NCBI GenBank assembly: GCA_041393415.1
Contig: JAWKKE010000009.1
Coordinates: forward strand, 2,571 to 66,570
Length of the DNA: 64,000 nt
DNA from: Thermoleophilia bacterium
GTDB taxonomy: Bacteria > Actinomycetota > Thermoleophilia > UBA2241
Direction of reading: 5' to 3'
The notes beneath the pieces are model-generated. The model did no database searches, had not been told where the DNA came from, and worked only from the letters and a program-made list of their open reading frames with translations. Positions 1,079 to 57,566 of the stretch are shown here, one piece after another; positions within the stretch are counted from its first letter, which is position 1, and each line of letters starts with the position of its first letter. A program made the translations under genes and the position numbers.

Positions 1079-1428
1079 GGGGCAAACCTCCACGGGGCGG
1101 ACTCCTTCACACGTTGCGCCGTCTGCACAGCACAGCGAGCCTCACTCCCGATCCTATCACCACGATCACAGAGGACACGGTATGTTCTCAACCACATTCC
1201 GTAGTCTCGCTGAGTCTCCGCGAGTCACAGCAAGGTCCAAGAACCGATGCCTTCGACGAGGTACGAACCTTCCCCTATGCGCAATGAACTCAGGGGCCTC
1301 GGCGCCGGCGCGCGAGCACGGCGGCGCGCCCCGGGAATCTCGTCCGCCCATAGACAATCAGCGCCTCGCGCCGCAAAATGGCCAGAGACGCGACCACATA
1401 CAGGGCAGCGGACAAAGGGGAGAACAGT

Positions 1429-3027: not shown

Positions 3028-3165
3028 CCGAAAGTGAACAGCCCGAAGCGATCTGAGTGAACAACGAAGGAGGGGGCGCGACCGCGCCCCCTCCTTCCAT
3101 CAGTACCCCAACACATGCCGGCGCCGCCCCCCGCGTCGCGGCGCTGCAAGCTGAAAGGACTCTGT

Positions 3166-12972: not shown

Positions 12973-13406
12973 GGTTCCTCCTCAACGTGCTGCGCCTGCC
13001 GGCGCATGACTCTCGCAACCGCGGCCGCCAAGTCCGCAGCCAGCGCCGGCGTCGGCGGCCCGAGATCGGCGGCGATCTCCAACGTCACACCTCGAGCGAC
13101 CTCAAGACGAACGACGGGACGCAGCCGCGGCGGTGAGACGCCGTCAACACGCGCGCTCCCCGCGTTCTCGCCGGGCAGCATCCCCTCCTCGGTAGCCGGG
13201 GACCCGATGTCGGCGAGCGACACGCCCTCGCTCTGGAGAGCACGCACGCGACGGATCTGCCGCAGGTGTCGCTCGTCGTAGTGGCGGCCGCGGCCGCGGC
13301 CAAGCGGCGGATCGATGAGCCGGCGCTGCACGTAGAAGTGCACCGTGCGCCGGCTCACCCCTGCCGCCTCGGCCAGATCGCCAATCGAGTAGCGCCGTCC
13401 GTTCAT
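12969..13406 (-). CDS. MerR-family transcriptional regulator
   Basis: Real start is ATG 13406-13404 inside ORF 12969..13640. The sequence MNGRRYSIGDLAEAAGVSRRTVHFYVQRRLI is a MerR HTH. Its stop overlaps the VIT-VWA start (ATGA at 12969-12972). Confidence 0.8.
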   Translation of the reverse strand: MNGRRYSIGDLAEAAGVSRRTVHFYVQRRLIDPPLGRGRGRHYDERHLRQIRRVRALQSEGVSLADIGSPATEEGMLPGENAGSARVDGVSPPRLRPVVRLEVARGVTLEIAADLGPPTPALAADLAAAVARVMRRQAQHVEEEP

Positions 13407-13425
13407 GTCCCAGTCATTCCCAATG

Positions 13426-13452
13426 TGACAGTCAATATAACAGTATGTGTCA
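13426..13452. promoter_or_regulatory. Candidate operator: inverted repeat TGACA-N17-TGTCA in an AT-rich divergent promoter region
   Basis: Sequence is tgtgacagtcaatataacagtatgtgtca, with three GTCATT copies nearby. It lies between the divergent merR-like gene and the M6 peptidase gene. This is the only AT-rich patch in that gap. Confidence 0.3.
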
Positions 13453-13594
13453 TTAGTGTCATTGCGCCGGCTCCCCACCACACGCACAGCGCCGACACGA
13501 CAGACACTCGCGCGGCCACCGCGTCCCTTGCGTAACACTCGCTCGGTCACCTCGTCCCTTGTATGCTCATTCCAGGCAACCCGAGGAGGTAACG

Positions 13595-15913
13595 GTGCGC
13601 AAAGTAGTACTGGGGGTCGCACTTGCGGCGCTGCTCTCATTCCTTATAGCGGCGCCGGCCGGAGCCGTCCCCGCCAACGAGGTGCTCATCGCCAAGAACC
13701 TCGAGCGCCTCGGCCTCATCCCGCCCTACGCGACCGCAGAGATGAAGAGCGCAACCGTCGGCGCCCTCGACGTCCAGGGCCCGCAGTACCCCAACAAGGC
13801 GCCCGTCGCGGGAGCAAAGAGCACGACGAGGTCGCTGGCCAAGGGCATCTCCAACCGCTCCGCTTCACTGAAGTCCGGCAGCACCTACGTCGCCAAGACG
13901 CTGGTGCTCCTCGTCGAGTTCGGCGACGACCCGTGGCCGGCCGGCTCATCGGCGCCCACGGGACCCAACCTCACCGGACCGCTGCACGGCAACATCCCGG
14001 CCCCGGAGGCCGGCGACAACGCCACCTTCTGGCTGGGCGACTTCTCCGCCGGCCAGTTCGACCAGATGCTCTTCGGCAACTCCTACACGATCTACGGCGA
14101 AGGAGCGAGCGGTGGACTCGTCGCCCGCGGCACCAGCACAGACACGATGCGCAACTACTACCTCGAGCAGTCGCACGGCACCTACACCGTAGACGGCGAC
14201 ATCGCCCAGTGGGTCCAGCTCGACATGCCCGAGTCGTGGTACGGCGCCGACAGCGTGCCCTGGGCCTCCACTGACGACCTCAACGGCCCCGTGTGGCGCG
14301 TGGCCCGCGACGCGCTCGTCAAGTTCGCCGAGCAGAACCCGGGGTTCGACTTCTCGCAGTACGACAAGGAGAACCCGTGGGGCCTCACCGGCGACAACTA
14401 CTTCCAGCCCGACGGCTACATCGACCACCTGATTCTCATCCACGCCGGCGCCGATGAGTCGGCCGGCGGCGGCAGCGAAGGGCCAGACGCCATTTGGGCC
14501 CACTCCTGGGACATCTACGAGAACCTCAGCGGTGGCCCCGGCAACGGCGCCGGCATGCTGATCCCCGGCACCGAGGGTCAAGGTCCGCAGGGCCTCGGCA
14601 TCTGGGCCTTCAACTACACCATCAACCCCGAAGACGGCGCGATCGGCGTGTTTTCGCACGAGTTCGGTCACGACCTCGGCCTCGACGATCAATACGACTA
14701 CGCAAGCGAGACCACCGGCGACGCCACCAGCGGCTTCTGGACCATCATGGCGAGCGGCTCGTGGCTGGGCAGCACTTGGGGTCTGGGCACCAAGCCGGCG
14801 CCTTTCAATGCCGACGACAAGGTGAATCTCGGCTTCATCAAGCCGAAGACGGTCAAGCGCAACAAGACCGCGACGGTCACCTTGCAGGCAGCGGCCACCG
14901 GTAACAGCAACCAGACCAGCGTCAAGATCGCCCTTCCCGACGCCTCGCACCCCGTTCCGCTGAGCGGCAAGGACGGGAGCAAGGAGTGGTACTCGACGCT
15001 CGGCAACAACCTCGACGTGACGCTCGCCACCACCAGCCCGATCCGCATCGCCGCGGGCGCCGACCTGACCTTCCGCACCTGGTACGAGATCGAGCCCGGC
15101 TACGACTTCGGCTACGTCGACATCTCAGACGACGGCGGCGCCACGTGGACCACGCTTGAGGTCTTCTCCGACATCGACACTTACAACTGGGCCAGCACTG
15201 TACGCGTCGACCTCGCCGAGTACGAGGGCAGCAACGCGCTCTTCCGCTTCCGCTACACGACCGACTACTCGGTCGTGGGCCGCGGCTGGGAGGTCACCGA
15301 CATCGCCGTCGGCGGGAGCGTCATCCCCGAGGGCAGCTTTACCTCGCACGGATGGGTGCGCACCGACGGTTCCTACACCATCAAGAGCACGCGCTACTAC
15401 ATCGCCGAGTACCGCACTCACCACGGCTTCGACGCCGCGCTCACCAAGTGCTACGAGTGGAACCGCGACGGCGTCAACCTGGTCGATTTCTACACCTACA
15501 ACACCGGCCTGCACCTCATCTACCGCGACACGTTCTACGACGACAACGACGTCGCCTCACACATCGGCTACGGGGCCCGCATGGTCGTCGACGCGCATCC
15601 GAAGCCGGACAAAGTCAGCTACGACGGCACAAACGGCTACTGGCGGCCGCGTATCCAGGTTCGCGACGCGGCCTTCAGCCTCAAGAAGACGGCCAGTCAG
15701 CGTATCTACTTCACCGACTACGACGCCGGTGAGCAAGTGGGCACGAAGACGGCTCCCGGCGAGACGGCGCAGCCGTGGTTCAACGACGCATGGACCTACT
15801 GGTACACGGCCACGCCCGAGGCTGGGGTCAAGATCCCGAAGCTCGGCGTGCGTATCAAGGTCGTGTCGCAGAAGTCGACCACGATGAAGATCTGGATCGA
15901 CAACAAGAAGTAA
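13595..15913 (+). CDS. Secreted M6-family (immune inhibitor A-like) metallopeptidase
   Basis: ORF 13559..15913. Preferred start is GTG 13595, after GAGGAGG. Signal peptide VRKVVLGVALAALLSFLIAAPAGA. The zinc motif HEFGHDLGLDDQYD matches the M6 HEFGHxLGLxDxY signature. Confidence 0.8.
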   Translation: MRKVVLGVALAALLSFLIAAPAGAVPANEVLIAKNLERLGLIPPYATAEMKSATVGALDVQGPQYPNKAPVAGAKSTTRSLAKGISNRSASLKSGSTYVAKTLVLLVEFGDDPWPAGSSAPTGPNLTGPLHGNIPAPEAGDNATFWLGDFSAGQFDQMLFGNSYTIYGEGASGGLVARGTSTDTMRNYYLEQSHGTYTVDGDIAQWVQLDMPESWYGADSVPWASTDDLNGPVWRVARDALVKFAEQNPGFDFSQYDKENPWGLTGDNYFQPDGYIDHLILIHAGADESAGGGSEGPDAIWAHSWDIYENLSGGPGNGAGMLIPGTEGQGPQGLGIWAFNYTINPEDGAIGVFSHEFGHDLGLDDQYDYASETTGDATSGFWTIMASGSWLGSTWGLGTKPAPFNADDKVNLGFIKPKTVKRNKTATVTLQAAATGNSNQTSVKIALPDASHPVPLSGKDGSKEWYSTLGNNLDVTLATTSPIRIAAGADLTFRTWYEIEPGYDFGYVDISDDGGATWTTLEVFSDIDTYNWASTVRVDLAEYEGSNALFRFRYTTDYSVVGRGWEVTDIAVGGSVIPEGSFTSHGWVRTDGSYTIKSTRYYIAEYRTHHGFDAALTKCYEWNRDGVNLVDFYTYNTGLHLIYRDTFYDDNDVASHIGYGARMVVDAHPKPDKVSYDGTNGYWRPRIQVRDAAFSLKKTASQRIYFTDYDAGEQVGTKTAPGETAQPWFNDAWTYWYTATPEAGVKIPKLGVRIKVVSQKSTTMKIWIDNKK

Positions 15914-28709: not shown

Positions 28710-29097
28710 CCGTAGCAAGCCGTAAGCCGGATCCTGTCGTGGGTGGCCATCCATCTAGGACGCTCGTTGCCGAACGCCTCATGCGACCGAAACCCGGGAG
28801 CCTCGGACGAGCAACCCTCAAACGCTCCCCTATTTGGTCTTGCACCGGGCGGGGCTTGCCGAGCCGGCCTGTCACCAGGACCGCTGGTGAGCTCTTACCT
28901 CACCGTTTCACCCTTACCCGCACCTCCGAAGAGGCCGCTGGCGGTCTGCTCTCTGTTGCGCTTTCCCTCGGGTTTCCCCGGCTGGACGTTATCCAGCGCC
29001 CTGCTCTGCGGTGTCCGGACTTTCCTCGGGCGGATGCCTCGCGGGCTCCGAAGAGCTCCGCGACGCGGCCCGCTCGCGACCACCTGGCTTGCCCGTG
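28710..29097 (-). ncRNA. rnpB: RNase P RNA, bacterial type A
   Basis: The minus strand contains the universal blocks GAGGAAAGUCCGGAC, ACAGAGAGCA, GGUAAGGGUGAAACGGUGAGGUAAGAGCUCACC, CAAGACCAAAUAGGGG, CUAGAUGGAUGG and ACAGGAUCCGGCUUA. P1 is formed by GCAAGCC (about 29092-29086) pairing with GGCUUGC (about 28721-28715). The ends are approximate to within about 10 nt. Confidence 0.9.
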
Positions 29098-45904: not shown

Positions 45905-46435
45905 ATGATGAACACTGATCAGATCGTCATCACTCCGGTCGGTGTCGTGCGTAGCGACCAGAAGGAGCTCGTCTGGAGGCCGGAGTCGGGCGCGCTGTCA
46001 TGGAACGACCGTGTGCGCCGAGAGAGAGCGAGCGCAGAGGCGGTCTCACGAATCGACATCGATCCGGCGCTGGACGGCATCCTCGACGGCATCGACGAGT
46101 ACTCACACCTGGTCGTCCTGTGGTGGCCGGACAGGAATCAAGCAGCGTCCGGCCCGCGAGTGCGCGTGCGGCCGATGGGGCGTCAGGATCTGCCGCTCGT
46201 CGGCGTCTTCGCCACACGCAGTCCGATGCGACCCAACTCCATCCTCGCGACCGTCGTCACGCTCGTGCGGCGTCAAGGCCAGACGCTCGAGGTGAGGGGC
46301 CTCGACGCAGTCGACGGCACCCCCATTCTCGACATCAAGCCGCTGACGCCACACGACTGTCCTCCGGAAGAACGTCGTATACCGGAGTGGCTACAGCGCC
46401 TAGACCGCGAACGGGCAGCAGTAGACGACGAGTAG
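45905..46435 (+). CDS. trmO: TsaA/TrmO (YaeB)-family SAM-dependent methyltransferase
   Basis: Contains ITPVGVVRSD, DEYSHLVVLWW, GVFATRSPMRPNSILATVVTLV and LDAVDGTPILDIKPL. Confidence 0.75.
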   Translation: MMNTDQIVITPVGVVRSDQKELVWRPESGALSWNDRVRRERASAEAVSRIDIDPALDGILDGIDEYSHLVVLWWPDRNQAASGPRVRVRPMGRQDLPLVGVFATRSPMRPNSILATVVTLVRRQGQTLEVRGLDAVDGTPILDIKPLTPHDCPPEERRIPEWLQRLDRERAAVDDE

Positions 46436-46521: not shown

Positions 46522-47130
46522 TTACTCGTCGGCCGGGCTCCACACCTCCCACACGCGACCCACGAGGTCCGGGCCGGGATGAAGCACCTTCTTACCCGGC
46601 TCCCAGCCAGACGGGGTCACCTCGGCGCCCTTGGTGGCGCGCACATGCTGGAATGCCTTGAGCTGACGGATCGTCTCCGCCACCTTGCGGCCCACAGGCG
46701 GTGTAAGAACCTCCATGGCCTGGACCACGCCGTCGGGATCGATGATGAATCGGCCGCGTACATCGACTCCCGCTTGCTCGTCGTACACGCCGAACGCCGT
46801 CCCCAGATGCCCCGCCGAGTCGGCGAGCATCGGGAACGGCACGCCGCCGTCGACCATCTTGGTGAGCTCGTTCTCGTTCCACATCTTGTGGACGAACTGG
46901 GAGTCAACGCTGACTGAGAGCACTTCTGCGTCCAGAGCCTGAAACTCGCTGTACTTCTCGGCGACCGCCGAGATCTCCGTAGGTCAGACGAAGGTGAAGT
47001 CGCCCGGGTAGAAGCACAGGACGACCCAACGCCCGAGCAGATCGGAGAGCTTGACCTGAGTGAAGGCGCCTTTGTGGTACGCAGGGGCGGCGAAGTCCGG
47101 CGCCGGACGACCCACCATGATGCTACTCAC
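46522..47130 (-). CDS. prxU: Peroxiredoxin (AhpC/Prx1 type) with in-frame TGA (46986-46984) at the peroxidatic-Cys codon; predicted selenocysteine
   Basis: Track ORFs 46984..47235 and 46522..46923 are contiguous in one frame: ...[54 protein letters not shown]... The start is GTG 47130, 5 nt after GAAGGAGGAGG, or ATG 47118. A SECIS-like hairpin follows the TGA. Confidence 0.75.
46956..46973 (-). promoter_or_regulatory. Candidate bacterial SECIS hairpin
   Basis: Minus strand reads UGA-CCUACGGAGA-UCUCGGC-GGUC-GCCGAGA. The stem is 7 bp with a GGUC loop starting 17 nt after the UGA. Confidence 0.6.
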
Positions 47131-47238
47131 GCTTGCCTCCTCCTTCACGCGCATCGTCGACTCGCCCTTCGCCGTCGGCTGCGCACCGACGACTGACCCA
47201 GTTGGACGAGCACAACCGATTGCCGGCTCCTCCATGTC

Positions 47239-48159
47239 TCACGCACCTCCTTGGCTTGGCTCGCTTTCATCGGACTCGGAATCAGCATAACAGTCCTCAT
47301 CGGCAGTTCCGCCGACCACAGCGACGACAACGTCGCTGAACGCCTGCGCCGCCGGCAAGTCCGTGCCCGAGAGCACGAACGGGTTGCCGCTGTCGCCTCC
47401 CTCTCCGATGCGCGGATCGAGCGGGATGCGGGCCACAAGCGGGACGTTCATCTCGCGCGCCAGCCTCTCCCCTCCCGGCCCCGGGAAGGCAGTGACCGAC
47501 GAGCCGCAGTGCGGACAGACGAGGTAGCTCATGTTCTCGACGATTCCGAGCACGGGCACCGAGAGCTGCCGGCAGAAGTTGATCGAGCGGCGCACGTCGG
47601 CGAGAGCGACGTCCTGCGGCGTCGTGATGACCAGGGCGCCGTACACGTCGGGCACAAGCTGGAGCACCGAGAGCGGCTCGTCGCCGGTGCCCGGCGGAAG
47701 ATCGATGATGAGGTAGTCGAGCTCGCCCCACTCGGTCTCGCCGAGCAGTCGCATGATCGACGAGTACTTGAGCGGGCCGCGCCAGATCACCGCGTCGTCG
47801 TCGCTACGCAGAAAGTACTTGATCGACATGACGGCGATTCCCTGACCGGCCGACACCGGCAGCATGCCCTCAGCGCCCGGCACAATATGCGCCGACTCGC
47901 ACCCGAGAAGCTGTGGCACACTGGGCCCGTGCAGATCCGCGTCGAGGATGCCGACGCGCAGACCCCGTCGCGCCAGAGCGACGGCGAGGTTGACGGCCAC
48001 CGTGCTCTTGCCCACGCCGCCTTTGCCGGAGAGGACGGCGATCGTACGTCCAATGTGCTCAAACCGGCGCTGTATCAGTTCCTCGCCCGAGGGTTGTTCC
48101 GCCGCGGGCTGAGCTTGAGCTGCGCGGCGATCGTCGTCGCCGGAATGTCGCTCGTTCAA
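47239..48159 (-). CDS. apbC: Mrp/NBP35 (ApbC)-family iron-sulfur cluster carrier ATPase
   Basis: Contains VLSGKGGVGKSTVAVNLAVALA (deviant Walker A), DLPPGTGD, and CPHCG (the cluster-bridging CxxC). TTG start at 48159 is preceded by GGAAGG. Confidence 0.85.
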   Translation of the reverse strand: MNERHSGDDDRRAAQAQPAAEQPSGEELIQRRFEHIGRTIAVLSGKGGVGKSTVAVNLAVALARRGLRVGILDADLHGPSVPQLLGCESAHIVPGAEGMLPVSAGQGIAVMSIKYFLRSDDDAVIWRGPLKYSSIMRLLGETEWGELDYLIIDLPPGTGDEPLSVLQLVPDVYGALVITTPQDVALADVRRSINFCRQLSVPVLGIVENMSYLVCPHCGSSVTAFPGPGGERLAREMNVPLVARIPLDPRIGEGGDSGNPFVLSGTDLPAAQAFSDVVVAVVGGTADEDCYADSESDESEPSQGGA

Positions 48160-48185
48160 TGGATCCTGCCTTCCCGATGAGTTCC

Positions 48186-48209
48186 TGCTACAGTATAGGG
48201 CATATGCCC
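48186..48209 (+). promoter_or_regulatory. Extended -10 (TGcTACAGT) followed by palindrome GGGCATATGCCC spanning the MBL start codon
   Basis: TGCTACAGT lies at 48186-48194. The palindrome lies at 48198-48209, and its central ATG (48204) is the predicted start. Confidence 0.45.
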
Positions 48210-48941
48210 ACTAGTGCCGCAGACGTCACGATCTTGTTCGACAACGAGGCGAGCACCCCCGGCCTTACGGCCCTGTGGGGGTTCGCGGCGCTGATCGAGA
48301 TCGGTGCGTTACGGATTCTGTTCGACACCGGCAGCAACGGCCGCGTGCTCTTGCGGAACATGGCCGCCCTGGGACTCCGGAGCGACGCGCTCGACATGCT
48401 CTTCCTCTCCCACGCCCACTGGGATCACAGCGGCGGCATCGACTCGGTGCTTGAGCTCAACGAACGCATCACCGTCGTACTGCACGACGGGTTCTCCTTG
48501 CACTTCATCGAGGATCTGCGCCGACTCTGCGGCGAGGTGATCGTCGTCGGCGCCGACCCGCAGGAACTGGCGCCCGGCGTCTTCAGCACTGGCAGACTCG
48601 ACGGTCCGCCGGCCGAGCACGGCATGGTGCTCGACGTCGGCGGCATCAGCGCGACCGTCGCTGGCTGTGCCCACCCGGGCGTCGAACGCATCGTGGCGAG
48701 CGGCGGCGCGCTCCTGGGGAGGCCGGTCGACTGGGCGATCGGCGGCTTTCATCTCCTCGCGACGGAACCGCCGGAAGTCGACCGGCGCATTCACAGATTG
48801 CGCGCCCTAGGTGTGACGAACGTGGTGCCGACGCATTGCACCGGTGAGGCGGCCCAGCACGCCTTTCGGGCCGCCTACGGCGAGCACTGCCACACCGGCG
48901 GCGTCGGTCGCCGCTTCGCGCTCGCCGCTCCACAACTCTGA
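48204..48941 (+). CDS. MBL-fold metallo-hydrolase (COG1237-like)
   Basis: Start is ATG 48204 (MPTSAADVTILFDNEA) inside ORF 48159..48941. The SHAHWDHSGG motif (HxHxDH) is present. The N-terminal xITxLxDN pattern is typical of this subfamily. Confidence 0.75.
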   Translation: MPTSAADVTILFDNEASTPGLTALWGFAALIEIGALRILFDTGSNGRVLLRNMAALGLRSDALDMLFLSHAHWDHSGGIDSVLELNERITVVLHDGFSLHFIEDLRRLCGEVIVVGADPQELAPGVFSTGRLDGPPAEHGMVLDVGGISATVAGCAHPGVERIVASGGALLGRPVDWAIGGFHLLATEPPEVDRRIHRLRALGVTNVVPTHCTGEAAQHAFRAAYGEHCHTGGVGRRFALAAPQL

Positions 48942-48975
48942 CCGCAGCCACGTCCTCGTACTCCCCTGTTCGCCC

Positions 48976-49015
48976 TTGACACTCCTCCTCAGGCTCGTAT
49001 ACTGAGCATATGCTC
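48976..49015 (+). promoter_or_regulatory. Near-consensus sigma-70 promoter TTGACA-16-TATACT abutting perfect palindrome GAGCATATGCTC
   Basis: TTGACA is at 48976-48981 and TATACT at 48998-49003. The palindrome is at 49004-49015. AAAGGAGG and ATG 49042 follow. Confidence 0.65.
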
Positions 49016-49041
49016 ATAATACAGACTGCAAAGGAGGATTC

Positions 49042-49401
49042 ATGCCTCATGGAGACAGCACTGGGCCCAGAGCCGCAGGACGCATGACAGGCCGCGGAGC
49101 AGGCTACTGTGGCGGCGGCAACGCGCCCGGCTACGAGAGTTCCCCCGGCGGCGGCCGGCGCGGCGGCGTTTCTCCCGAAGGAGTTTCGACGTGGCCGCGG
49201 CCACCGCAGTCGCTTCCTGGCCACCGGGCTGACCGGTTGGGAACGCGAGTCCGCGGCCCTGGTCCGCGTTCGATCGCTCCGCCGGCCACGCCGGACAGCT
49301 CTCACGAGCGCGATTGTCACCCTGCGAGCACACAAAACGAGCGTATCGAGCGGGCGCTCGGCGACATCCGTCAGCGCCTGGCGGACCTTGAGGCCAAGTG
49401 A
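49042..49401 (+). pseudogene. DUF5320-like gene with at least two internal frame changes
   Basis: The frame of ATG 49042 gives MPHGDSTGPRAAGRMTGRGAGYCGG, the family N-terminal motif, and the C-terminal coiled coil NERIERALGDIRQRLADLEAK. The central family motif FRRGRGHRSRFLATGLTGWER is encoded in the frame of ORF 49109..49486. Confidence 0.6.
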
Positions 49402-49900
49402 CGTACACCACAGCACCGTGGCTGACGGCGGCGGGAAGCCCAGCACAGCGACGCAGGACCTTCAGGTTCATCGGCGTCGCACCTGACCGGGATGCGCAGC
49501 ACCCCGGTGCAGCCCTTCTTTCGCCGCGGGCAACGCCGGACGTATCGAGATTCTGATGCGTTCGCCGATGGTCTCGACCGACGTCGACGGCTTCTCGCAC
49601 ATCCACGTCCTGTACTGGCTGCACAAGCGCCAAGCCCAGCAGCGCTGCACGCGTCGTCCCCTTCCTCGACACCGAGCCACACGGAATTCCGCGACGGTCG
49701 CCAAACCGGCCCAACGCCATCGGACTGAGCGTCCTACGCCCGTTGCGCGGCACGGGACCACGCTCGTCGTCGAAGACGTCGACATCCTGACGGCACGCCA
49801 GTGCTCGACATCAAGCCCTACTTCGCACGCCTGACGCCCGCCACGACGCGCGCAGCGGATGGGTCGACAATTGTCGACGAAGACGCACACCGTGGTCAGA
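49398..49900 (+). pseudogene. TsaA/YaeB-like gene fragmented by many frame changes
   Basis: Family motifs are spread over all three frames: FRFIGV, PVQP, DAFADGL, IEIL...DVDGFSHIHVLYWLHK, VVPFLDTEPHG, RRSPNRPNAIGLSVLR, TTLVVEDVDIL, LDIKPYF and RSGWVD. A possible GTG start at 49398 overlaps the preceding stop. The 3' end is approximate. Confidence 0.55.
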
Positions 49901-50063
49901 GCGCCTGGCAGGACACACGCCTGACGATCCAGACGTCACAGCGGTTCAGGCGCCCTGGCTGGCGCGCGTGGCGCGGCTCAGAGCGACACGCCGCACGCGA
50001 CGGGGCTCCCGCCACGTTTCTCCCACTCCGGGCCGCCGCTTGTACCGCGCCCACATTGGCGGC

Positions 50064-50075
50064 GAGCATATGCCC
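50064..50075. promoter_or_regulatory. Third copy of the cluster palindrome (GAGCATATGCCC)
   Basis: It lies 46 nt upstream of the GTG of the first MinD-type ATPase, whose RBS is AGAGAGGAGG. TTATAT follows it immediately. Confidence 0.4.
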
Positions 50076-50120
50076 CTTATATCGACCCCTACAGGCTTCA
50101 CGCAGAGAGGAGGTAGCGCA

Positions 50121-50987
50121 GTGCGCGTCGCACACAGCGGAAAGGGTGGCACCGGGAAGACGCTTCGGCGACGACCGCCGCTGACACTGCCGCGTGCAGG
50201 GACTGGCAGTCCAACTGCTCGACGCTGACGTCGAGGAGCCGAAACCGCCATCTCTCCTGCGCCCCAGGCCGACCGCACCGAGACGGTGCACGTCCCGATC
50301 CCTCATGGTCGACGAATCGCGCCGCAGCGGCTGCGGCGCTTGGTGCCGGCGTTTGCGCCTTTCGCGCACTTGCGGTCGTAGGGATCATCCGTGCTCGTGT
50401 TCCCCGAGATCTGTCACTCGTGTGGCGCCTGCGTGCGGTACTGCCCCGAACAGGCGCTGCATGAGGAGATGCCCCAATGGAGCCGTGTGGAGCATGCGAG
50501 CGCCAACGCCTGTGGCCGGCCGGTCTTCTCCAGTTGGTGACGGGCACGCTCGCGATCGGCGAGGCGAAAGCGGTACCTGTCACCAAGGCCGTCGTGGCGA
50601 CCGCCAGCGAAGACGCCGACGTGGTGACGCTCTCCTGGCACCTCGTGTCCGGCGATCGCAGCCGTGGCCGACGCCGACTTCGTCGTGCTCGTGACCGAGC
50701 CGACGCCGTTTGGGCCCACGATCTCGAACTGGCTGTAGAGATGGTCCGCGCGCCTGGGCTGTCGCGAAGCCGCTGTCAATCGCGTCGTGGCGGGCGACCA
50801 CAGGGTGCGGCAGCACTGTGCAGCCGAACGCCTCGAGATCGTCGCGGAGCTGTCGGACGACCGCCGCATCGAAGCCCATGCCCGCGGCCAACTCATGGTC
50901 GACGCCGTCCCCGCCCTGGAGCGGGAGCTGGCCACAGTTTGGGAGCGGATCGCGGCGGCGGCGGAACGCAAAGAGGTGCACGCATGA
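50121..50987 (+). pseudogene. MinD-superfamily P-loop ATPase with 2x[4Fe-4S] ferredoxin insert (COG1149-like), broken by at least nine frame changes
   Basis: Recognisable pieces, with frame given as coordinate mod 3:
- 50121-50162 (f0): VRVAHSGKGGTGKT
- 50203-50245 (f1): LAVQLLDADVEEP
- 50286-50303 (f0): VHVPIP
- 50305-50337 (f1): MVDESRRSGCGA
- about 50339-50383 (f2): GAGVCAFRALAVVG
- 50391-50468 (f0): VLVFPEICHSCGACVRYCPEQALHEE
- 50525-50635 (f2): LLQLVTGTLAIGEAKAVPVTKAV...DVVTLS
- 50631-50714 (f0): SPGTSCPAIAAVADADFVVLVTEPTPFG
- 50714-50761 (f2): AHDLELAVEMVRAPGL
- 50760-50987 (f0): C-terminus; its stop overlaps the next ATG. Confidence 0.65.
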
Positions 50988-51886
50988 GCGCCGTGCGCCA
51001 ACTCGTCGTCATCAGCGGAAAGGGAGGCACCGGGAAGACGAGCGTCGTGGGTGCGTTTGCGGCGCTGGCCGACGGAGCCGTCCTCGCCGACTGCGACGTC
51101 GACGCCGCCAACCTGCACCTCATCCTCGAGCCGCGATTGGGCGAGCCGCACGACTTCAGCGGCCGCAACCGCGCAATCATCGACCAGACTGCCTGCCGCG
51201 CCTGCGGTCGCTGTGCCGACATGTGCCGCTTCGACGCCGTCTCGGTGCGTGACGGGCAGTACGTCATCAACCCGCTGGCCTGCGAGGGCTGCGAATTCTG
51301 CCGCAGAGAGTGCCCCTGGAACGCCATACACATGGAGCCCGTGGTCAACGGCACCTGGATGGTCTCGGAGACGAGCTTCGGACCGCTGGTGCACGCGCGA
51401 CTCGGGATCGCGGAGGACAACTCCGGCAAGCTGGTGACACTGGTACGCCAGCAGGCGCAGGAGGTAGCCGAGCAGCGCGACCTCCCGCTTGTGATCGTCG
51501 ACGGCGCGCCCGGCATCGGCTGTCCGGTGATCGCGTCGCTCACCGGCGCCGACGTGGTACTCGCCGTCACCGAGCCCACCGTCTCCGGCCGTCACGACTT
51601 GGCACGCGTGCTCGAGGTCGTGCGGCGCTTCAAGCTGCCCTTCGGCGTCTGCGTCAACAAGGCAGACCTCAACCCGGAGATCAGCGAGCACATCGTCGCC
51701 GAGGCGGTGGAGCGCGGCGCACTGTTCGTGGCGCACGTCGGCTACGACGCTGCCGTTACACGGGCGCAGGTGGCCGGGCTCGACTTGGTGACCTACGGCG
51801 GCACCGCCGTGCAGGAGATCCGCATGCTCTGGGACTCGGTCGCCGCCGCACTGAACACCTCGCGGCGAAAGGCGGTCGACACGTGA
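50984..51886 (+). CDS. MinD-superfamily P-loop ATPase with 2x[4Fe-4S] ferredoxin insert (COG1149-like), intact
   Basis: Begins MSAVRQLVVISGKGGTGKTSV. Two CxxCxxCxxxC motifs are present (CRACGRCADMC, CEGCEFCRREC). Also contains DGAPGIGCPVIAS. The start overlaps the previous stop (ATGA). Confidence 0.85.
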   Translation: MSAVRQLVVISGKGGTGKTSVVGAFAALADGAVLADCDVDAANLHLILEPRLGEPHDFSGRNRAIIDQTACRACGRCADMCRFDAVSVRDGQYVINPLACEGCEFCRRECPWNAIHMEPVVNGTWMVSETSFGPLVHARLGIAEDNSGKLVTLVRQQAQEVAEQRDLPLVIVDGAPGIGCPVIASLTGADVVLAVTEPTVSGRHDLARVLEVVRRFKLPFGVCVNKADLNPEISEHIVAEAVERGALFVAHVGYDAAVTRAQVAGLDLVTYGGTAVQEIRMLWDSVAAALNTSRRKAVDT

Positions 51887-51994
51887 CGCCGCAGAACACG
51901 CACGACGAGGCTTGCCTCGCAGCTTGCCTCGCACCGTGCTGCACGAGGACACCGCGTTCTTGGCGGCGTCCGCAACAAGAGAGGAGCCATCATA

Positions 51995-52360
51995 GTGAAG
52001 ATCATCATCAGCGCTCAGGGAAACGATATCGACTCCCTGACTGATCCCAGATTCGGACGCTGTCGCTACCTCATCGCCGTCGAGACGACCAGCGGCGAGT
52101 GGCACGCGCACGACAACCAAGACAACGCGGCCGCGAGCGGTGGCGCCGGAGTGGAAGCCAGCAATCGCGTCGTATCGCTGGGCGCGGCGGCTGTGATTAC
52201 CGGGAATCTCGGTCCGAATGCGGCACGCGTACTGGACGCGGCGCACATCGCCGTCTATCGCGCCGAGAACGGCGCCACGGTGCGCGAGGCTGTGGCCGCG
52301 TTTGCCGCCGACGGCCTGGAGAGAATCGACGCGCCCACCGTCCAGGGACACTGGATGTGA
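51995..52360 (+). CDS. NifX/NifB-C-terminal-like (dinitrogenase FeMo-cofactor-binding domain family) protein
   Basis: GTG 51995 lies 8 nt after GAGAGGAG. Begins MKIIISAQGNDIDSLTDPRFGRCRYLIAV, with ITGNLGPNAARVL later. This is typical of the small NifX-like family. Confidence 0.75.
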   Translation: MKIIISAQGNDIDSLTDPRFGRCRYLIAVETTSGEWHAHDNQDNAAASGGAGVEASNRVVSLGAAAVITGNLGPNAARVLDAAHIAVYRAENGATVREAVAAFAADGLERIDAPTVQGHWM

Positions 52361-52791
52361 TGGCCATGATCGCGAACAGACAAGGCGGCGGCCGCGGTCA
52401 GTACCAGCGCCAGAGACGCAGAGACGGCTCGGGACCCAACTGCGGCGGCCGCGGCGCGCGGCGTTGCGGCGGAAGCCGGCAGGAACAGGCCGGAGCTCCG
52501 CGCGCGGCCACGAGTACCCTCATTGCCGCAGGTACCTACCTCATCCACGACGTGCGCGACGCCGACGGTCTGGTGCGGCCGCTGCTGCGCCGGGCCGCAC
52601 TCTCCCTCGTCACCTGCCCCTACTACTCGGCGCGGCGCCTCGCCGGCGCGTACTTGCGACTCGATCCACCGCCGCCGGCGCCGCTGCCGCCGGCGACAGT
52701 AGAGTCACACCGGCTGTCGGCAGCTCACGATGCCCCCGCGCTGCCGACGCGCGTCGCGGGCGCCGAGCCCAACGACGCGCTGCTACAATGA
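52360..52791 (+). CDS. Hypothetical Arg/Gly-rich protein (distant DUF5320-like N-terminal motif RRDGSGPNCGGRGARRCGG)
   Basis: ATG 52360 overlaps the preceding TGA by one base. The frame is open in GC-rich DNA, so coding status is uncertain. The promoter of the next gene lies in its 3' end. Confidence 0.3.
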   Translation: MAMIANRQGGGRGQYQRQRRRDGSGPNCGGRGARRCGGSRQEQAGAPRAATSTLIAAGTYLIHDVRDADGLVRPLLRRAALSLVTCPYYSARRLAGAYLRLDPPPPAPLPPATVESHRLSAAHDAPALPTRVAGAEPNDALLQ

Positions 52792-52808
52792 TGATTGAGC
52801 ATATGCCA
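52781..52808 (+). promoter_or_regulatory. Extended -10 (TGcTACAAT) followed by palindrome-like GAGCATATGCCA upstream of the DUF134 gene
   Basis: TGCTACAAT is at 52781-52789 and the motif at 52797-52808. AAGGAG and ATG 52828 follow. Confidence 0.55.
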
Positions 52809-52827
52809 ACAAGGAGATAATCCCCGC

Positions 52828-53334
52828 ATGCCTCGCCCACCCATCGCACGTACCGTCGGCGGAGTCCCCAGACACACGCTCTTCAAGCCCGCGGGCATCC
52901 CGGCCCGTGAGCTCGAACACTTGGCGCTGGCAGTCGACGAGCTGGAGGCGATCCGTCTCGTCGACTTCGAAGGCCTCAGCCATGAGCAGGCGGCCGTCGC
53001 CATGGGCGTCTCCCGCCAGACGATCGGCCGCGTCCTCGAGCACGGGCGCGCTCAGGTGGCCGAGGCACTCGTGACGGGCAAGGCAATCCTCATCGGCGGC
53101 GGTCAATATCGAGTCGAGGCGCGGGTGCTCTGTTGCGCCTCGTGCGGAGCCGCGTGGACAGAGGCGCCCGACGGGCCGCCGCCGGACGCCTGCCCAGATT
53201 GCGGCGCGCCGACGGTCAGCACCTGCTGGCATGAGGGACGGCACGAAGGACGGCGCGGCAACACATGGCGCGGCGGACGCTGCCGGGGCCGCGCCACCAC
53301 CTACGCAGACGCGAATAACCAGAGAACGGAGTGA
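52828..53334 (+). CDS. DUF134 (UPF0251) predicted DNA-binding protein with C-terminal zinc-ribbon extension
   Basis: Begins MPRPPIARTVGGVPRHTLFKPAGIP. DELEAIRLVDFEGLSHEQAAVAMGVSRQTIGRVL is a sigma-70 region-4-like HTH. The C-terminal part carries CCASCG...CPDCG. Confidence 0.8.
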   Translation: MPRPPIARTVGGVPRHTLFKPAGIPARELEHLALAVDELEAIRLVDFEGLSHEQAAVAMGVSRQTIGRVLEHGRAQVAEALVTGKAILIGGGQYRVEARVLCCASCGAAWTEAPDGPPPDACPDCGAPTVSTCWHEGRHEGRRGNTWRGGRCRGRATTYADANNQRTE

Positions 53335-53342
53335 CTTCACAC

Positions 53343-53726
53343 ATGAGCGAAACGAACGCATCCAAGAAACGCGTGGCAGTCCCGTCGGAAGCGCCTGGCG
53401 GTCTCGACGCGAGAAGGTCGGGCCACTTCGGACGTTGCGACTGTTTCACGGTCGTCGAGGTCGAGAACGGCAACCTGGGAGCTGTGGAAGTGGTCGTCAA
53501 TCCACCGCATCATGAGGGTGGGTGCATGCGTCCGGTGGTGCTCCTGGCCGAGAACACCGTCGACGCAATCGTCGTGGACGGAATCGGCGGTCGGCCTCTG
53601 CTAGGCTTCAATCAGGTCGGCATCGCCGTGCACGCAGGCACCGGCACAGACGTACAGACCGCGGTGAGAGCGTATGCGCAGGGATCGCTGCCCGAGGTCG
53701 GACTCGAGGGTGCGTGTCGCCACTAG
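53343..53726 (+). CDS. NifX/NifB-C-terminal-like domain protein (second copy)
   Basis: Contains KRVAVPSEAPGGLDARRSGHFGRCDCFTVVEV and VDAIVVDGIGGRPLLGF. ATG 53343 is preferred; the track start is GTG 53331. Confidence 0.7.
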   Translation: MSETNASKKRVAVPSEAPGGLDARRSGHFGRCDCFTVVEVENGNLGAVEVVVNPPHHEGGCMRPVVLLAENTVDAIVVDGIGGRPLLGFNQVGIAVHAGTGTDVQTAVRAYAQGSLPEVGLEGACRH

Positions 53727-53789
53727 GCAGATCGGGCAAACCGGCAGCGACAGCGTGACCACGAAAACCGCAGCAGGCAAGGAGTCAAC

Positions 53790-54695
53790 ATGACATCCGT
53801 CGAGACGATCCAGAGGGAGCGCGGCATCATCGGTCGCAATCGCGAGCTGCGGCGCGCGTTGGCTGTACTCAACTCCGGACGCCATCTCCTTCTCGAGGGG
53901 CCGGTCGGTGTCGGCAAGACTCGTGTCGCGCTCGCCGTCTGCGCCCACCTGCAACGCGGCGTCGAGCGCGTAGACGGCGACGACCGGTACTCGGAGAGCA
54001 AGCTCACGGGCTGGTTCGACCCGCCCGTGGTCCTCAAGCAGGGATACAGCGAGGAGTCGTTCTTCGCCGGCCCGCTGGTCAACGCCATGCGCCAAGGCAA
54101 GATCCTCTTCATCAACGAGCTCAACCGCATGCCGGAGACAGTCCAGAACGTGCTCCTGCCGGCACTGGACGAGCACATCCTGCAAGTGCCGCACATCGGC
54201 GAAGTACGCGCCGCCCCCGGATTCCAGGTTGTTGCCACCCAGAACCCCGTAGAGTACATCGCCACCGGTCACCTCTCGGAGGCCCTGCGCGACCGCTTCG
54301 AGCACCTGCGCCTCGACTACCAGTCGGCCACTGAAGAGGAAGCGATCGTGTGCGCCGAGACGGACTGCGACAACCTCGACCTCATCCGCACCGCCGTGCG
54401 CCTGGCGCGGGCAACGCGCCGCCATCCGCTCTTCCGCCGCGGCGCCTCGGTGCGCGCGCCCATGGCCACCGTGATGGTTGCCGAGGAGCTGCGCAAGGCC
54501 GACGGTCGCCCGGCCGGCCAGATCGATCGGGCGACTCTCTGGTGCGCCGCCGAGGCCGGCTTCACCACCCGCGTGCACATGCGCGACGAGAGCAACATGG
54601 ACTTCGCGACCGCGTTCGGCGAGGTCTTCGAGCTCGTCGTCGACCGCGGGCTCGACCCCGACGAGGCACTTACCCCGCCTGCCCCAAAAGCCTGA
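53790..54695 (+). CDS. MoxR-like AAA+ ATPase
   Basis: AAGGAG lies before ATG 53790. Walker A is LLEGPVGVGKT and Walker B is ILFINELNR. Also contains VVATQNP. Confidence 0.8.
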   Translation: MTSVETIQRERGIIGRNRELRRALAVLNSGRHLLLEGPVGVGKTRVALAVCAHLQRGVERVDGDDRYSESKLTGWFDPPVVLKQGYSEESFFAGPLVNAMRQGKILFINELNRMPETVQNVLLPALDEHILQVPHIGEVRAAPGFQVVATQNPVEYIATGHLSEALRDRFEHLRLDYQSATEEEAIVCAETDCDNLDLIRTAVRLARATRRHPLFRRGASVRAPMATVMVAEELRKADGRPAGQIDRATLWCAAEAGFTTRVHMRDESNMDFATAFGEVFELVVDRGLDPDEALTPPAPKA

Positions 54696-54772
54696 GCGCC
54701 CTGCGGGCGCTCGAGGAGACCTATCGCGATCTGGCGGCGCTGCCGCTCGAGCCAGATCTGCTGCACGAAGAG

Positions 54773-55573
54773 ATGGACGACGACGAGTTCCTCGCCTTCA
54801 TCGCCCGGCACACCGAGGGCAGCGAGGGCGTCGTCGACGCAGCGCCGCACTTCTACGCCGTGCGGCCGCGCGTAGAAGACGTGCTCGCGCAGGCGGCGAG
54901 CATCGTCGGCCCGTTGCGCGCGGCCACTACCACCGTGCGCGAGATCATGCGCGAGCCGTACATCGGCGAGCTCGACATCGACGCGACGCTCGAGAACATG
55001 GTCGGCAAGGAGTTCCCGGAGCGAGACGACTGGATCGTCCAGATCCGCGAGGAGCGTCGCCATCAGGTCGTCATGATGATGGATGCCTCGCTCTCCATGG
55101 CCGGCGAGAACCTCTCCGTAGCCGCGGTCGCGGTCGCCATCATGGCCTTCAAGATCAAACCTGAGGATCTCGCGGTGGTCGTCTTCGAGGACGAAGCGCG
55201 CGTCGTCACCCGCCTCGACGCAACCGACTCGCCGCAAGACGTGATCCGCAGCATGCTCGATCAGCCGGGGTTGGGCGTCACCGACATCGAAGCGGCGCTG
55301 CTCAAGGGGGCCAGAGAGATCACGCGGGCGCGAAACCCGCGCCGTAGCGGCCTACTGGTGACCGACGGCCGGCCCACAAAGGGGGCCGCCGATCCCTCCG
55401 ACATCGCGTACCTCTTCCCTCACCTGCACGTCCTGCTCACCGAGGACAAATACATGGACGAGGAGCTCTGCCAGTCAATCGCCGCCGCCGGCAACGGTGA
55501 GGTGTTCCCGGTGCGTACGATTCAGGAACTGCCGCAGCGCATGCTCGACGTGGCCAACGGCGTGCTGCGATAG
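54773..55573 (+). CDS. von Willebrand factor A domain protein (partner of the MoxR ATPase)
   Basis: The MIDAS motif is VVMMMDASLSMAG. ATG 54773 is the first canonical start in the frame of ORF 54350..55573. The frame stays open and protein-like for about 75 nt upstream without ATG/GTG/TTG, so the true start is uncertain. Confidence 0.7.
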   Translation: MDDDEFLAFIARHTEGSEGVVDAAPHFYAVRPRVEDVLAQAASIVGPLRAATTTVREIMREPYIGELDIDATLENMVGKEFPERDDWIVQIREERRHQVVMMMDASLSMAGENLSVAAVAVAIMAFKIKPEDLAVVVFEDEARVVTRLDATDSPQDVIRSMLDQPGLGVTDIEAALLKGAREITRARNPRRSGLLVTDGRPTKGAADPSDIAYLFPHLHVLLTEDKYMDEELCQSIAAAGNGEVFPVRTIQELPQRMLDVANGVLR

Positions 55574-55585
55574 ATCAGGAGCAGA

Positions 55586-55624
55586 GGAGCGGGCGCCGGT
55601 TCAATGCGAGGCGGCGCCCGCTCC
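55586..55624. terminator. Hairpin at the junction of convergent genes
   Basis: GGAGCGGGCGCC (55586-55597) pairs perfectly with GGCGCCCGCTCC (55613-55624). It overlaps the last codons of the minus-strand gene. Confidence 0.45.
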
Positions 55625-56695
55625 GCGTTTGAAGCTGAAGCCGAAGCCAGGTGCCTGCGTGAGCGGCTCCAGCGGGCTCCGCGGCACGCCTGCATGCGCC
55701 TCGCCGTGGTAGTCGATGGGCGCAACATCGTTAGGCCCATAGGGATACAGCAGGCTGGCGAGCGCCTGGATCTGCGCCCTTCCCACGCCGAGCTCGAACT
55801 GGCCACCGCCGTAGAGCACGATGCCTTCGGCGAGGGCGCGATCGACGCAGTCGAGGAGCGCCGAGAGCGAGCCGAAGCGTGACGGCTTGATGTTGAGAAA
55901 GCGCGGATGTTCGGGCAACGCCTCCACATCCGCCCAGGAGTGGATGGGCGCGTCGAAACTGAAGCGCGCCTCTTCCCCGTCAAGCGCCGCGCGCGCCGGC
56001 CCCTCAAGGGCCGGATCCTCGAGAATGGCGTCGGGGAAGGCCGCCGCCACCGCCCGGTACTGCGCCGCATCCGGCGGATTGTCGACCGGCGAGCCGTGAT
56101 AGAAGGCCTTGAAATCGAGCACCCGCACTCTGCCCGTCGCAGCCACGCGCGCGATGGTCCCTCCATCCCATTCGGGCGTGGGATCGAGCTTGAACTCGAG
56201 CTCCGGGTTCACCGCCAGCCAAGGCATGACGTCGAGCCGCGTGGAGACGGCAAAGCGAACGGGATGGTAGTCGTGGTCAAGCGCCGCGCCAAACGACTTG
56301 CCCTGCTGCCGCAGGGCAAGGTCCAGCGCGGCGCTCTCGAACGCCCAGCGCCGGTAGTTGCGATACGTGTCCGACTCCGGTGGCCTGTCGGGGAACAGGT
56401 CCAGGCCGCCGATCAACTGTGAGAAGCCGTCGAGCGTCGTCTGGCCGCGCAACGGCAGCGCCAGCGGATAGGGATCGTGATCCGCGGCCGCGTAGGTCAC
56501 GTCTTCGCCGCGGCCCTCGTGCCCGCTACCGCGCAGCACGACAACCGTCGTCACGCGGCGAAAACCGCTCGAGACGTCGCGCTCCAGCCGCTCGCAGCCG
56601 TAGTCCTCTACCGTCAGAGGCAAGCCCGCGATGCGCGCGTATGGACCCTCGTCTACCCGCACTTGACCGATGTGAGTGTTGTCGCGCGCGTCCAC
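55601..56695 (-). CDS. Enolase-superfamily-like (MR/MLE C-terminal domain-like) protein
   Basis: Preferred start is GTG 56695, after GAGAGGACGGAGG. The pattern FLNIKPSRFGSLSALLDCVDRALAEGIVLYGGGQFELGVGRAQIQALASL resembles the barrel C-terminal half of OSBS/racemase-like enzymes. The assignment is tentative. Confidence 0.45.
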   Translation of the reverse strand: MDARDNTHIGQVRVDEGPYARIAGLPLTVEDYGCERLERDVSSGFRRVTTVVVLRGSGHEGRGEDVTYAAADHDPYPLALPLRGQTTLDGFSQLIGGLDLFPDRPPESDTYRNYRRWAFESAALDLALRQQGKSFGAALDHDYHPVRFAVSTRLDVMPWLAVNPELEFKLDPTPEWDGGTIARVAATGRVRVLDFKAFYHGSPVDNPPDAAQYRAVAAAFPDAILEDPALEGPARAALDGEEARFSFDAPIHSWADVEALPEHPRFLNIKPSRFGSLSALLDCVDRALAEGIVLYGGGQFELGVGRAQIQALASLLYPYGPNDVAPIDYHGEAHAGVPRSPLEPLTQAPGFGFSFKRGAGAASH

Positions 56696-56756
56696 GCCTC
56701 CGTCCTCTCTGACCTCGCGTCGCCCTGCGCCTTCGCCCGTGCCCACGCCCCAAACC

Positions 56757-57125: not shown

Positions 57126-57566
57126 TCACACCTCCCTCGCCGCCGCCTCGCCGCCGCAACACTGACAGAAAGCCCATCGCCACGCCACTAGCGCCGGCAG
57201 ATTGCGGAAACCTGCGACGCGAAAAGGCCGCGGACACCGGTCGCGCCGGTTCACGGAGGTCGTCGGCGTGGCATGTCGCTGCTTGGTCAAGACGGCAGAA
57301 GTGCTGGTGAGGCGGATGAATCGAGGCGAACGATACTGAACCGGAGACCGCACGGCGGCAGCCCCCTCAAAACGGTCACCTAGTTCCCCTACCCCATCCA
57401 GCAGACGAACGTCTTCAACTTCCCCAAGTACTCGACCAAGGCTACGGTCTTCGCCAAGGCACGGAGTCAACTAGTGGAGAGCATCGAGAAGGCGCAATAG
57501 TGGACAGGGCAGCGCAGGCCAAGGAGAATGGTCGCAACGAAACTGGGTCGTCTCGGAGGTCGTGAA

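Follow-up and report, generated by a model that had tools for sequence, protein, structure and literature searches.

Does the run of metal-related genes at positions 47239 to 55573 of a 64,000-nucleotide (nt) stretch of Thermoleophilia DNA (contig JAWKKE010000009.1; the whole stretch is called the window here) encode one dedicated metallocofactor assembly module, or do separate systems lie side by side? The original prediction, made from the sequence alone, favored a single module: NifX-like, COG1149-type ATPase, DUF134, DUF5320, and Mrp genes extended by a MoxR-VWA pair and a selenocysteine peroxiredoxin (PrxU). We put the probability at roughly 80% that the locus is instead a gene cluster of the orange protein complex (ORP) type, carried by an anaerobic member of the Thermoleophilia, with the MoxR-VWA pair a separate module placed alongside it by a clade-specific rearrangement. 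The earlier interpretation is therefore partly supported, in that the core genes and Mrp form one module, which is ORP, whereas the MoxR-VWA pair is no conserved addition and PrxU is loosely associated. The underlying observation is likewise partly confirmed: Pfam and NCBIfam searches identified every listed gene in the order and on the strands described, but three of the genes are corrupted in this assembly, and the PrxU gene (46522 to 47235, minus strand) falls outside the stretch that had been delimited.

The center of the cluster is formed by two adjacent paralogous MinD/ParA-type ATPases resembling Orp3 and Orp4, ATPase1 (50121 to 50987, plus strand) and ATPase2 (50984 to 51886, plus strand), whose genes overlap by 4 nt. 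Each protein combines a CbiA/ParA domain with Fer4 and carries two CxxCxxCxxxC 4Fe-4S motifs. ATPase2 was read from the window, and ATPase1, whose motifs are CSGCGACAGVC and CHSCGACVRYCP, was read from two further assemblies (L236 and L237, described below). Downstream, NifX1 (51995 to 52360, plus strand; PF02579) is a Di-Nase domain protein of the orange-protein (Orp8) type. It matches the Desulfovibrio gigas orange protein (PDB 2WFB) over residues 2 to 106 with an E value of 3.6e-15, and it matches MTH1175 just as well (E = 2.8e-15).

On the minus strand, the Mrp/NBP35 iron-sulfur (Fe-S) carrier ATPase (47239 to 48159; Pfam ParA/NUBPL, 319 bits) retains the Walker A motif GKGGVGKS and a CPHC motif. 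Among NCBIfam families it matches MrpORP best, with 348.5 bits across positions 2 to 255 of the 365-position model; ApbC reaches 252 bits. The score is below the MrpORP equivalog cut-off (348 versus 450), and the two-domain fusion of P-loop and Di-Nase domains is not found in this protein. The remaining model positions, 257 to 364, are covered by NifX2 (53331 or 53343 to 53726, plus strand; PF02579), a stand-alone counterpart of the MrpORP Di-Nase domain with which it has HFGxC, PPH, and C-terminal CxH motifs in common. Since Mrp matches the first part of the model and NifX2 the second, MrpORP is present here as two genes. An exact-protein look-up with NifX2 retrieved no record, probably owing to a different called start.

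These parts correspond to those of a system described in Desulfovibrio vulgaris, where the ORP complex comprises Orp3 and Orp4 (similar proteins with two [4Fe-4S] motifs each), Orp5, Orp8, and Orp9, the last being MrpORP; Orp8 is the orange protein and holds a Mo-Cu-S cluster, and in strain Hildenborough the genes fall into two groups, orp3-orp4-orp5 and orp7-orp8-orp9 (PMC6345978, PMC8359166). In vitro, Orp3-Orp4-Orp8 accepts Fe-S clusters from MrpORP (PMC6345978), and experiments in Desulfovibrio have also shown a physical complex and an effect on cell morphology (PMC6345978, PMC8359166). The core had previously been described as lacking an assigned function, and this description does not hold for a gene set known as the Desulfovibrio ORP cluster. 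Its physiological role is still unsettled, cell division being the working hypothesis (PMC8359166).

How far the gene set recurs was assessed by scanning with ATPase2, keeping one genome per species. The scan yielded 80 loci from the Bacillota, Planctomycetota, Desulfobacterota, Acidobacteriota, Omnitrophota, Thermotogae, Methanohalophilus, and others, which were annotated with profiles built for this analysis; a neighbor was counted when it lay within 5 kb of the anchor ATPase2. A second ATPase was present in 76 of the 80 loci and a NifX-fold gene in 72. DUF5320 followed with 41, Mrp with 38, the metallo-beta-lactamase (MBL)-fold gene with 19, and DUF134 with 17, while TrmO_N was found in 6 and a peroxiredoxin in 2. 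Because the core recurs in 80 loci of many phyla, this clustering is far above chance. These counts support the proposed grouping of the NifX-like, COG1149-type ATPase, DUF134, and DUF5320 genes, together with Mrp, into a single conserved module that handles Fe-S or metal-sulfide clusters. Mrp and the MBL gene are genuine recurrent members of the ORP-type cluster, and for Mrp the assignment agrees with its best NCBIfam family. In six of the loci, a fused MrpORP scoring above the equivalog cut-off (512 to 550 bits against 450) lies beside the tandem ATPases. Separately, in locus L002, from a close relative, NifX1 is preceded in frame by a radical-SAM fragment of ~95 amino acids (CTYDCIYC; 9354 to 10028, minus strand), which gives a truncated NifB-like architecture and has no counterpart in the window.

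DUF5320, the MBL hydrolase, and TrmO_N are recurrent accessory genes. In the window, the MBL-fold hydrolase (48159 to 48941, start possibly 48177, plus strand; Pfam Lactamase_B/B_2) is divergent from Mrp and is followed by DUF5320 (49042 to 49401, plus strand; PF17253) and by the TrmO_N, or TsaA-like, gene (~49440 to 49965, plus strand; PF01980, 129 bits). A second, intact TrmO_N-only paralogue lies at 45905 to 46435 on the plus strand, convergent with PrxU, and a TrmO_N gene also occurs ~1.6 kb upstream of PrxU in another Thermoleophilia locus, L240. Between NifX1 and DUF134 stands an Arg/Gly-rich open reading frame (ORF) of 141 amino acids (52366 to 52791, plus strand), which has no Pfam match but is gene-called in L237; its seven homologues occur in related loci, and it is kept only in Thermoleophilia clusters. 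Profile comparison with hhalign revealed no relation between this ORF and DUF5320. The gaps taken from the intact L237 gene calls, beginning after the MBL gene, are 100, 42, 176, -4, 108, 5, 36, 8, 63, and -4 to 77 nt. The earlier statement that almost all junctions overlap or are shorter than 60 nt is thus only partly true.

In Desulfovibrio, expression of the orp operons requires a very low redox potential, at which OrpR, a redox-sensing sigma-54 activator, turns them on (PMC8359166). Every gene from PrxU to SnoaL in the window was identified, and none encodes OrpR or a similar sigma-54 activator. The cluster instead contains DUF134 (52795 or 52828 to 53334, plus strand), a helix-turn-helix (HTH) protein that matches PF02001 at 84.5 bits, has a sigma-70 region-4-like HTH, and ends in a CxxC...CxxC arrangement. 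A sigma-70-like promoter match (TTGACA-16-TATACT, 11 of 12 positions; a consensus match only) lies upstream of DUF5320 at 48976 to 49003 on the plus strand. Elsewhere, PAS-sigma54-HTH activators of OrpR architecture stand beside six ORP-type clusters (L085, L093, L117, L119, L140, and L149), whose hosts belong to the Acidobacteria, Brocadiia, Bacillota, and other groups. When wider windows were considered, DUF134 accompanied 18 clusters and no locus had both DUF134 and an OrpR-like activator, although these numbers are too small for significance. DUF134 is likely a local transcription regulator that takes the place of OrpR, and the finding that the two never occur together fits this role.

The window presents part of the cluster as badly broken. 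Relative to its orthologue, ATPase1 has at least 10 frameshifts, the TsaA-like gene has at least 6, and the middle part of DUF5320 is in another frame, so that at least 16 frameshifts fall inside 1.7 kb. Taken at face value, this density would indicate that the cluster is decaying and that the three genes are real pseudogenes. An exact-protein look-up, however, recovered a short-read Logan contig (L236, from SRR28338172) that spans positions 46709 to 52695 of the window. Outside 49183 to 50877 it is 100% identical to the window save for two mismatches near 48162, whereas inside this interval the two differ by 88 mismatches and 90 indel bases. DUF5320 (121 amino acids), TrmO_N (175), and ATPase1 (293) are unbroken in L236 and also in L237, an NCBI metagenome-assembled genome (MAG) contig; L236 and L237 are independent assemblies of the same species as the window and represent two strains 0.5% apart. 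In addition, eleven neighboring genes of the window (~8.5 kb) have no frameshifts at all. A plot of G+C content at third codon positions by frame, made over the whole window to locate frameshift zones without homologues, was too noisy to decide. Because the flanks of L236 are identical to the window and the genes are intact in both L236 and L237, we regard the interval as a low-quality stretch: the frameshifts are almost certainly assembly or consensus errors. We reject gene decay, which is very improbable given the intact copies. The interval would otherwise pass as three pseudogenes, and the biology of these genes is to be read from L236 and L237.

The second part of our reading concerns the two genes that follow NifX2. 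MoxR (53790 to 54695, plus strand; AAA_5, 86 bits) is a AAA+ ATPase similar to NorQ, CbbQ, and GvpN, and its closest solved bacterial protein is NorQ (E = 2.9e-16). Its Walker B motif reads NE instead of DE, within FINELNR around residues 100 to 110, and in the alignment this Asn stands where midasin has the Walker B Asp. The peptide FINELNRM was also one of six search patterns that together retrieved several hundred relatives. Its partner, a VWA protein with the MIDAS motif DASLS (54692 or 54773 to 55573, plus strand), matches VWA_CoxE at 33.7 bits. A MoxR scan gave 77 loci, in which ORP genes were sought within 10 kb. Since single-linkage clusters of these neighborhoods were blurred by alternative-frame ORFs in the high-GC DNA, Pfam-confirmed clusters alone were used.

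The MoxR gene is followed by VWA in essentially all 77 loci, and SnoaL, DUF8230, MoxR, and VWA usually stand in this order on one strand, where a second MoxR-VWA pair is often present; 31 to 36 loci have FakA and PntAB downstream. ORP genes occur near MoxR in only 3 of the 77 (L001, L002, and L003), which are the closest relatives of the window at 83 to 85% identity and so count as one evolutionary event. Conversely, no relative of MoxR or VWA was found in the flanks (up to 10 kb) of the 80 ORP-type loci, and MoxR, VWA, and DUF8230 each scored 0 of 80 when the count was limited to 5 kb around ATPase2. The proposal that the MoxR-VWA pair extends the cluster thus fails in the neighborhood comparison that had been suggested as its check: the adjacency is limited to this small clade.

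Even within the clade, the arrangement varies. In L001 to L003, the ORP cluster and VWA lie on opposite strands and converge. The two are directly adjacent in L002, whereas FeoB intervenes in L003, and L001 has an IS-like HTH_21 transposase fragment (12840 to 13658), a short-chain dehydrogenase, and PrxU in between. The FeoB of L003, a ferrous iron transporter gene, is directly downstream of the ORP-type cluster (11870 to 13866, minus strand). In L004, DUF8230, MoxR, and VWA are followed by a convergent homologue of the window's large surface protein, and there are no ORP genes; relative to this backbone, the window carries an inserted ORP block and an inverted MoxR-VWA segment. In two other Thermoleophilia MAGs, both systems are present but distant from each other, in one case on different contigs and in the other on a single contig with ~800 kb between them. 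When the borders of the inverted segment were searched for inverted repeats, nothing notable emerged; the search gave only a perfect 13-bp hairpin (55586 to 55624) where the VWA and DUF8230 genes converge, a possible terminator. Nothing beyond local adjacency supports a functional tie between MoxR-VWA and ORP, and the pair is probably not part of the ORP system but its neighbor through a clade-specific rearrangement.

Several observations weigh against this reading. MoxR starts 63 nt past NifX2 in the same direction; the gap contains a ribosome-binding site but nothing resembling a terminator, and this junction was confirmed in three independent assemblies (L237, L238, and L239, the last two being ENA contigs), so that co-transcription of NifX2 and MoxR in this species is possible. 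An alignment of the regions upstream of MoxR, made in search of its own promoter, showed conservation of the ribosome-binding site alone. MoxR or the MoxR-VWA pair abuts the ORP cluster in four related genomes despite the rearrangements, and L002 has an extra MoxR copy divergent from DUF5320. CoxD and CoxE mature a Mo-Cu-S center reminiscent of the Mo-Cu-S cluster of the orange protein, and the VWA protein is CoxE-like, although this is a resemblance only. The linkage of MoxR-VWA to DUF8230 is itself confined to one lineage, being found in 0 of 38 more distant DUF8230 homologues (Gaiellaceae and haloarchaea). On the ORP side, MrpORP is split here rather than fused, OrpR or sigma-54 control is missing, and the ATPases are putative counterparts of D. 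vulgaris Orp3 and Orp4.

From the junction in L237 to L239, and from the MoxR genes that flank the ORP cluster in L001 to L003, one might argue that the pair was recruited in this clade as a dedicated remodeling or metal-insertion chaperone of the ORP-type complex and is co-transcribed with it. Such a function would be in keeping with other MoxR-VWA pairs, which are known metal-insertion chaperones, for example NorQ/NorD (PMC9976466, PMC13036017). We nevertheless consider recruitment improbable. The four adjacent cases are close relatives and amount to one event, and the 80 ORP-type loci of other lineages have neither gene nearby. Moreover, the pair is convergent with the cluster in L001 to L003, other genes intervene in two of these three, the pair retains its ancestral neighbors DUF8230 and SnoaL on the other side, and the two systems are far apart in other Thermoleophilia.

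If the pair belongs to a separate module, its usual upstream neighbor in Thermoleophilia becomes a candidate client. DUF8230 (55601 to 56746, minus strand) had no match in the Pfam copy searched but is covered by precomputed Pfam entries (PF26684/PF26685). It is a divergent enolase-superfamily-like protein, matching PDB 1sja with an E value of 1.6e-5 and retaining NIKP and FDAP motifs. One proposal, compatible with the separate-module reading, is that MoxR-VWA serves DUF8230 by activation or metal loading, as CbbQ/CbbO does on Rubisco. In its favor, the retained motifs apart, DUF8230, MoxR, and VWA follow one another on the same strand, often with two pairs and short gaps, in ~34 of 42 close loci (at least 65% identity; L158 to L198 among them). 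The missing linkage in the 38 more distant homologues counts against this proposal too, as does the convergent orientation of DUF8230 and MoxR-VWA in the window, and since the housekeeping genes FakA and PntAB are conserved in the same block, plain synteny suffices. We therefore treat the linkage as lineage-level synteny and not as strong functional evidence, and the service of MoxR-VWA to DUF8230 as a tentative idea that is rather doubtful.

The remaining addition, PrxU, is a genuine member by sequence of the known PrxU selenoprotein family, which was first described in Eubacterium acidaminophilum. It scores 382 bits on NCBIfam NF040737 (peroxi_PrxU) against an equivalog-level cut-off of 270, and an in-frame TGA (46984 to 46986), read as selenocysteine, replaces the peroxidatic Cys codon. 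The same site has an in-frame stop in all 80 PrxU relatives collected from the Thermoleophilia, Coriobacteriia, Spirochaetota, Desulfobacterota, Acidobacteriota, and others. RNA folding placed a hairpin resembling a selenocysteine insertion sequence (SECIS) element at 46956 to 46973 on the minus strand; it begins 13 nt past the UGA and consists of 7 bp closed by a GGUC loop (UCUCGGC-GGUC-GCCGAGA). The hairpin is identical in L001, and in the deltaproteobacterial locus L102 this position is occupied by a hairpin whose sequence differs, UUGGCGGC-AGUU-GCCUCCAA. The fold of the whole 66-nt stretch is not significant (z-score, -0.6). No Rfam SECIS match was obtained; the gathering-threshold search gave RNase P RNA only and an E-value search of the peroxiredoxin region gave chance miRNA matches.

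Because the PrxU start codon lies 3 nt past the Mrp stop on the same strand, PrxU is probably in the same transcript as Mrp. The presence of ORP-type genes near PrxU is nonetheless sporadic: they were found at ~4 to 5 of the 80 PrxU loci (~5%; L240, L284, L286, and L294), and also near PrxU in L102 and L001. By a rough estimate rather than a computed statistic, this may be several-fold above chance. The addition noted in the original prediction is thus a real selenoprotein, but one from a known family that rarely accompanies ORP-type genes. Its distribution fits a protective role for oxygen-labile Fe-S proteins, not core membership. A more ambitious combination of these elements would be that MoxR-VWA, with its NE Walker B motif and CoxE-type VWA, was captured, in this one small Thermoleophilia clade, into the ORP operon as a cluster-insertion or remodeling chaperone while the Mrp-coupled PrxU guards the labile clusters. 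We find this distinctly unlikely; if true, the ORP system would gain a chaperone and, with it, the first handle on what ORP assembles.

Under our preferred reading of an ORP-type cluster beside an independent MoxR-VWA pair, the working parts would be the two MinD/ParA-type ATPases with their inserted 2x[4Fe-4S] ferredoxin domain, the Orp8-like NifX1, and the split MrpORP made up of Mrp and NifX2. By analogy with Desulfovibrio, where the transfer has been shown, Mrp would receive Fe-S clusters and pass them to the ATPase/NifX-fold complex, which, on the same analogy, would hold or pass on metal-sulfide clusters under strongly reducing conditions. PrxU would probably protect the oxygen-labile ORP-type proteins. 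MoxR-VWA would work independently of these as the separate chaperone module of a Thermoleophilia syntenic block that includes DUF8230 and SnoaL.

The surroundings of the cluster are ordinary. G+C content ranges from 64 to 73% across the window, and the closest relatives of its genes are all from Thermoleophilia (Actinomycetota) MAGs. The 20 large ORFs scanned outside the cluster encode, among others, pentose-phosphate enzymes, an AddAB-like helicase-nuclease, an MMPL protein, an MttB-family methyltransferase, and a KdpD-like two-component system. No nitrogenase or nifB-type radical-SAM domain was detected among these 20 ORFs, shorter ones having been left out; within that scope, the earlier statement that the window lacks nifHDK, nifEN, and nifB holds. 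The MttB-family methyltransferase gene lies beside one for a family-5 solute-binding protein (1354 to 4578, plus strand), and a large VIT-VWA protein (10546 to 12981, minus strand) is unrelated to the MoxR-associated VWA. The window has no tRNA; a bacterial class A RNase P RNA is encoded at 28712 to 29091 on the minus strand (271 bits). L237 matches the window up to position 57198, beyond which it carries different genes (a HisKA_7TM protein); the cause is either a rearrangement between strains or a mis-join in one assembly or the other.

Taken together, these results identify, rather than a novel kind of system, a Thermoleophilia copy of the ORP cluster that has been described in Desulfovibrio and other anaerobes. 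This complex occurs widely among anaerobes and is shut off as redox potential rises, and the locus identifies its host as anaerobic. For annotation, DUF134, DUF5320, the COG1237-type MBL hydrolase, and NifX-like genes of this sort can be linked to the ORP system. The actinobacterial version is distinguished by a split MrpORP, by DUF134 where Desulfovibrio has OrpR, and by PrxU 3 nt downstream of Mrp.

Set against D. vulgaris, the cluster is alike in its two adjacent MinD-like ATPases with two [4Fe-4S] motifs each, its orange-protein-type PF02579 protein, its MrpORP-type Mrp/NBP35 carrier with a Di-Nase domain, its divergent arms, and its restriction to anaerobes. It differs in that MrpORP is divided between two genes, that the OrpR/sigma-54 activator is missing and its place is taken by a DUF134 HTH protein together with a sigma-70-like promoter match, that DUF5320, MBL, TrmO_N, and the Arg/Gly-rich ORF are extra and PrxU is coupled to Mrp, and that the host is an actinobacterium. 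PrxU agrees with its family in its equivalog score and the UGA at the peroxidatic Cys codon, and a candidate SECIS hairpin lies downstream, whereas its place next to an ORP-type Mrp gene is a neighborhood found in a few percent of PrxU loci. The MoxR-VWA pair resembles NorQ/NorD, CbbQ/CbbO, CoxD/CoxE, and GvpN systems in that an AAA_5 MoxR precedes a VWA protein that has a CoxE-type domain and a MIDAS motif; unlike them, it has no nor, cbb, cox, or gvp client gene nearby, its Walker B motif is NE, and its conserved neighbor is DUF8230 and not the ORP cluster. Finally, NifX1 and NifX2 belong to the PF02579 fold family of the FeMo-cofactor carriers NifX, NafY, and NifB-C and of the thioferrate storage protein IssA, yet, in contrast to NifX and NafY, which go with nitrogenase genes that the scanned ORFs do not include, the closest sequences here are the orange protein and MTH1175.

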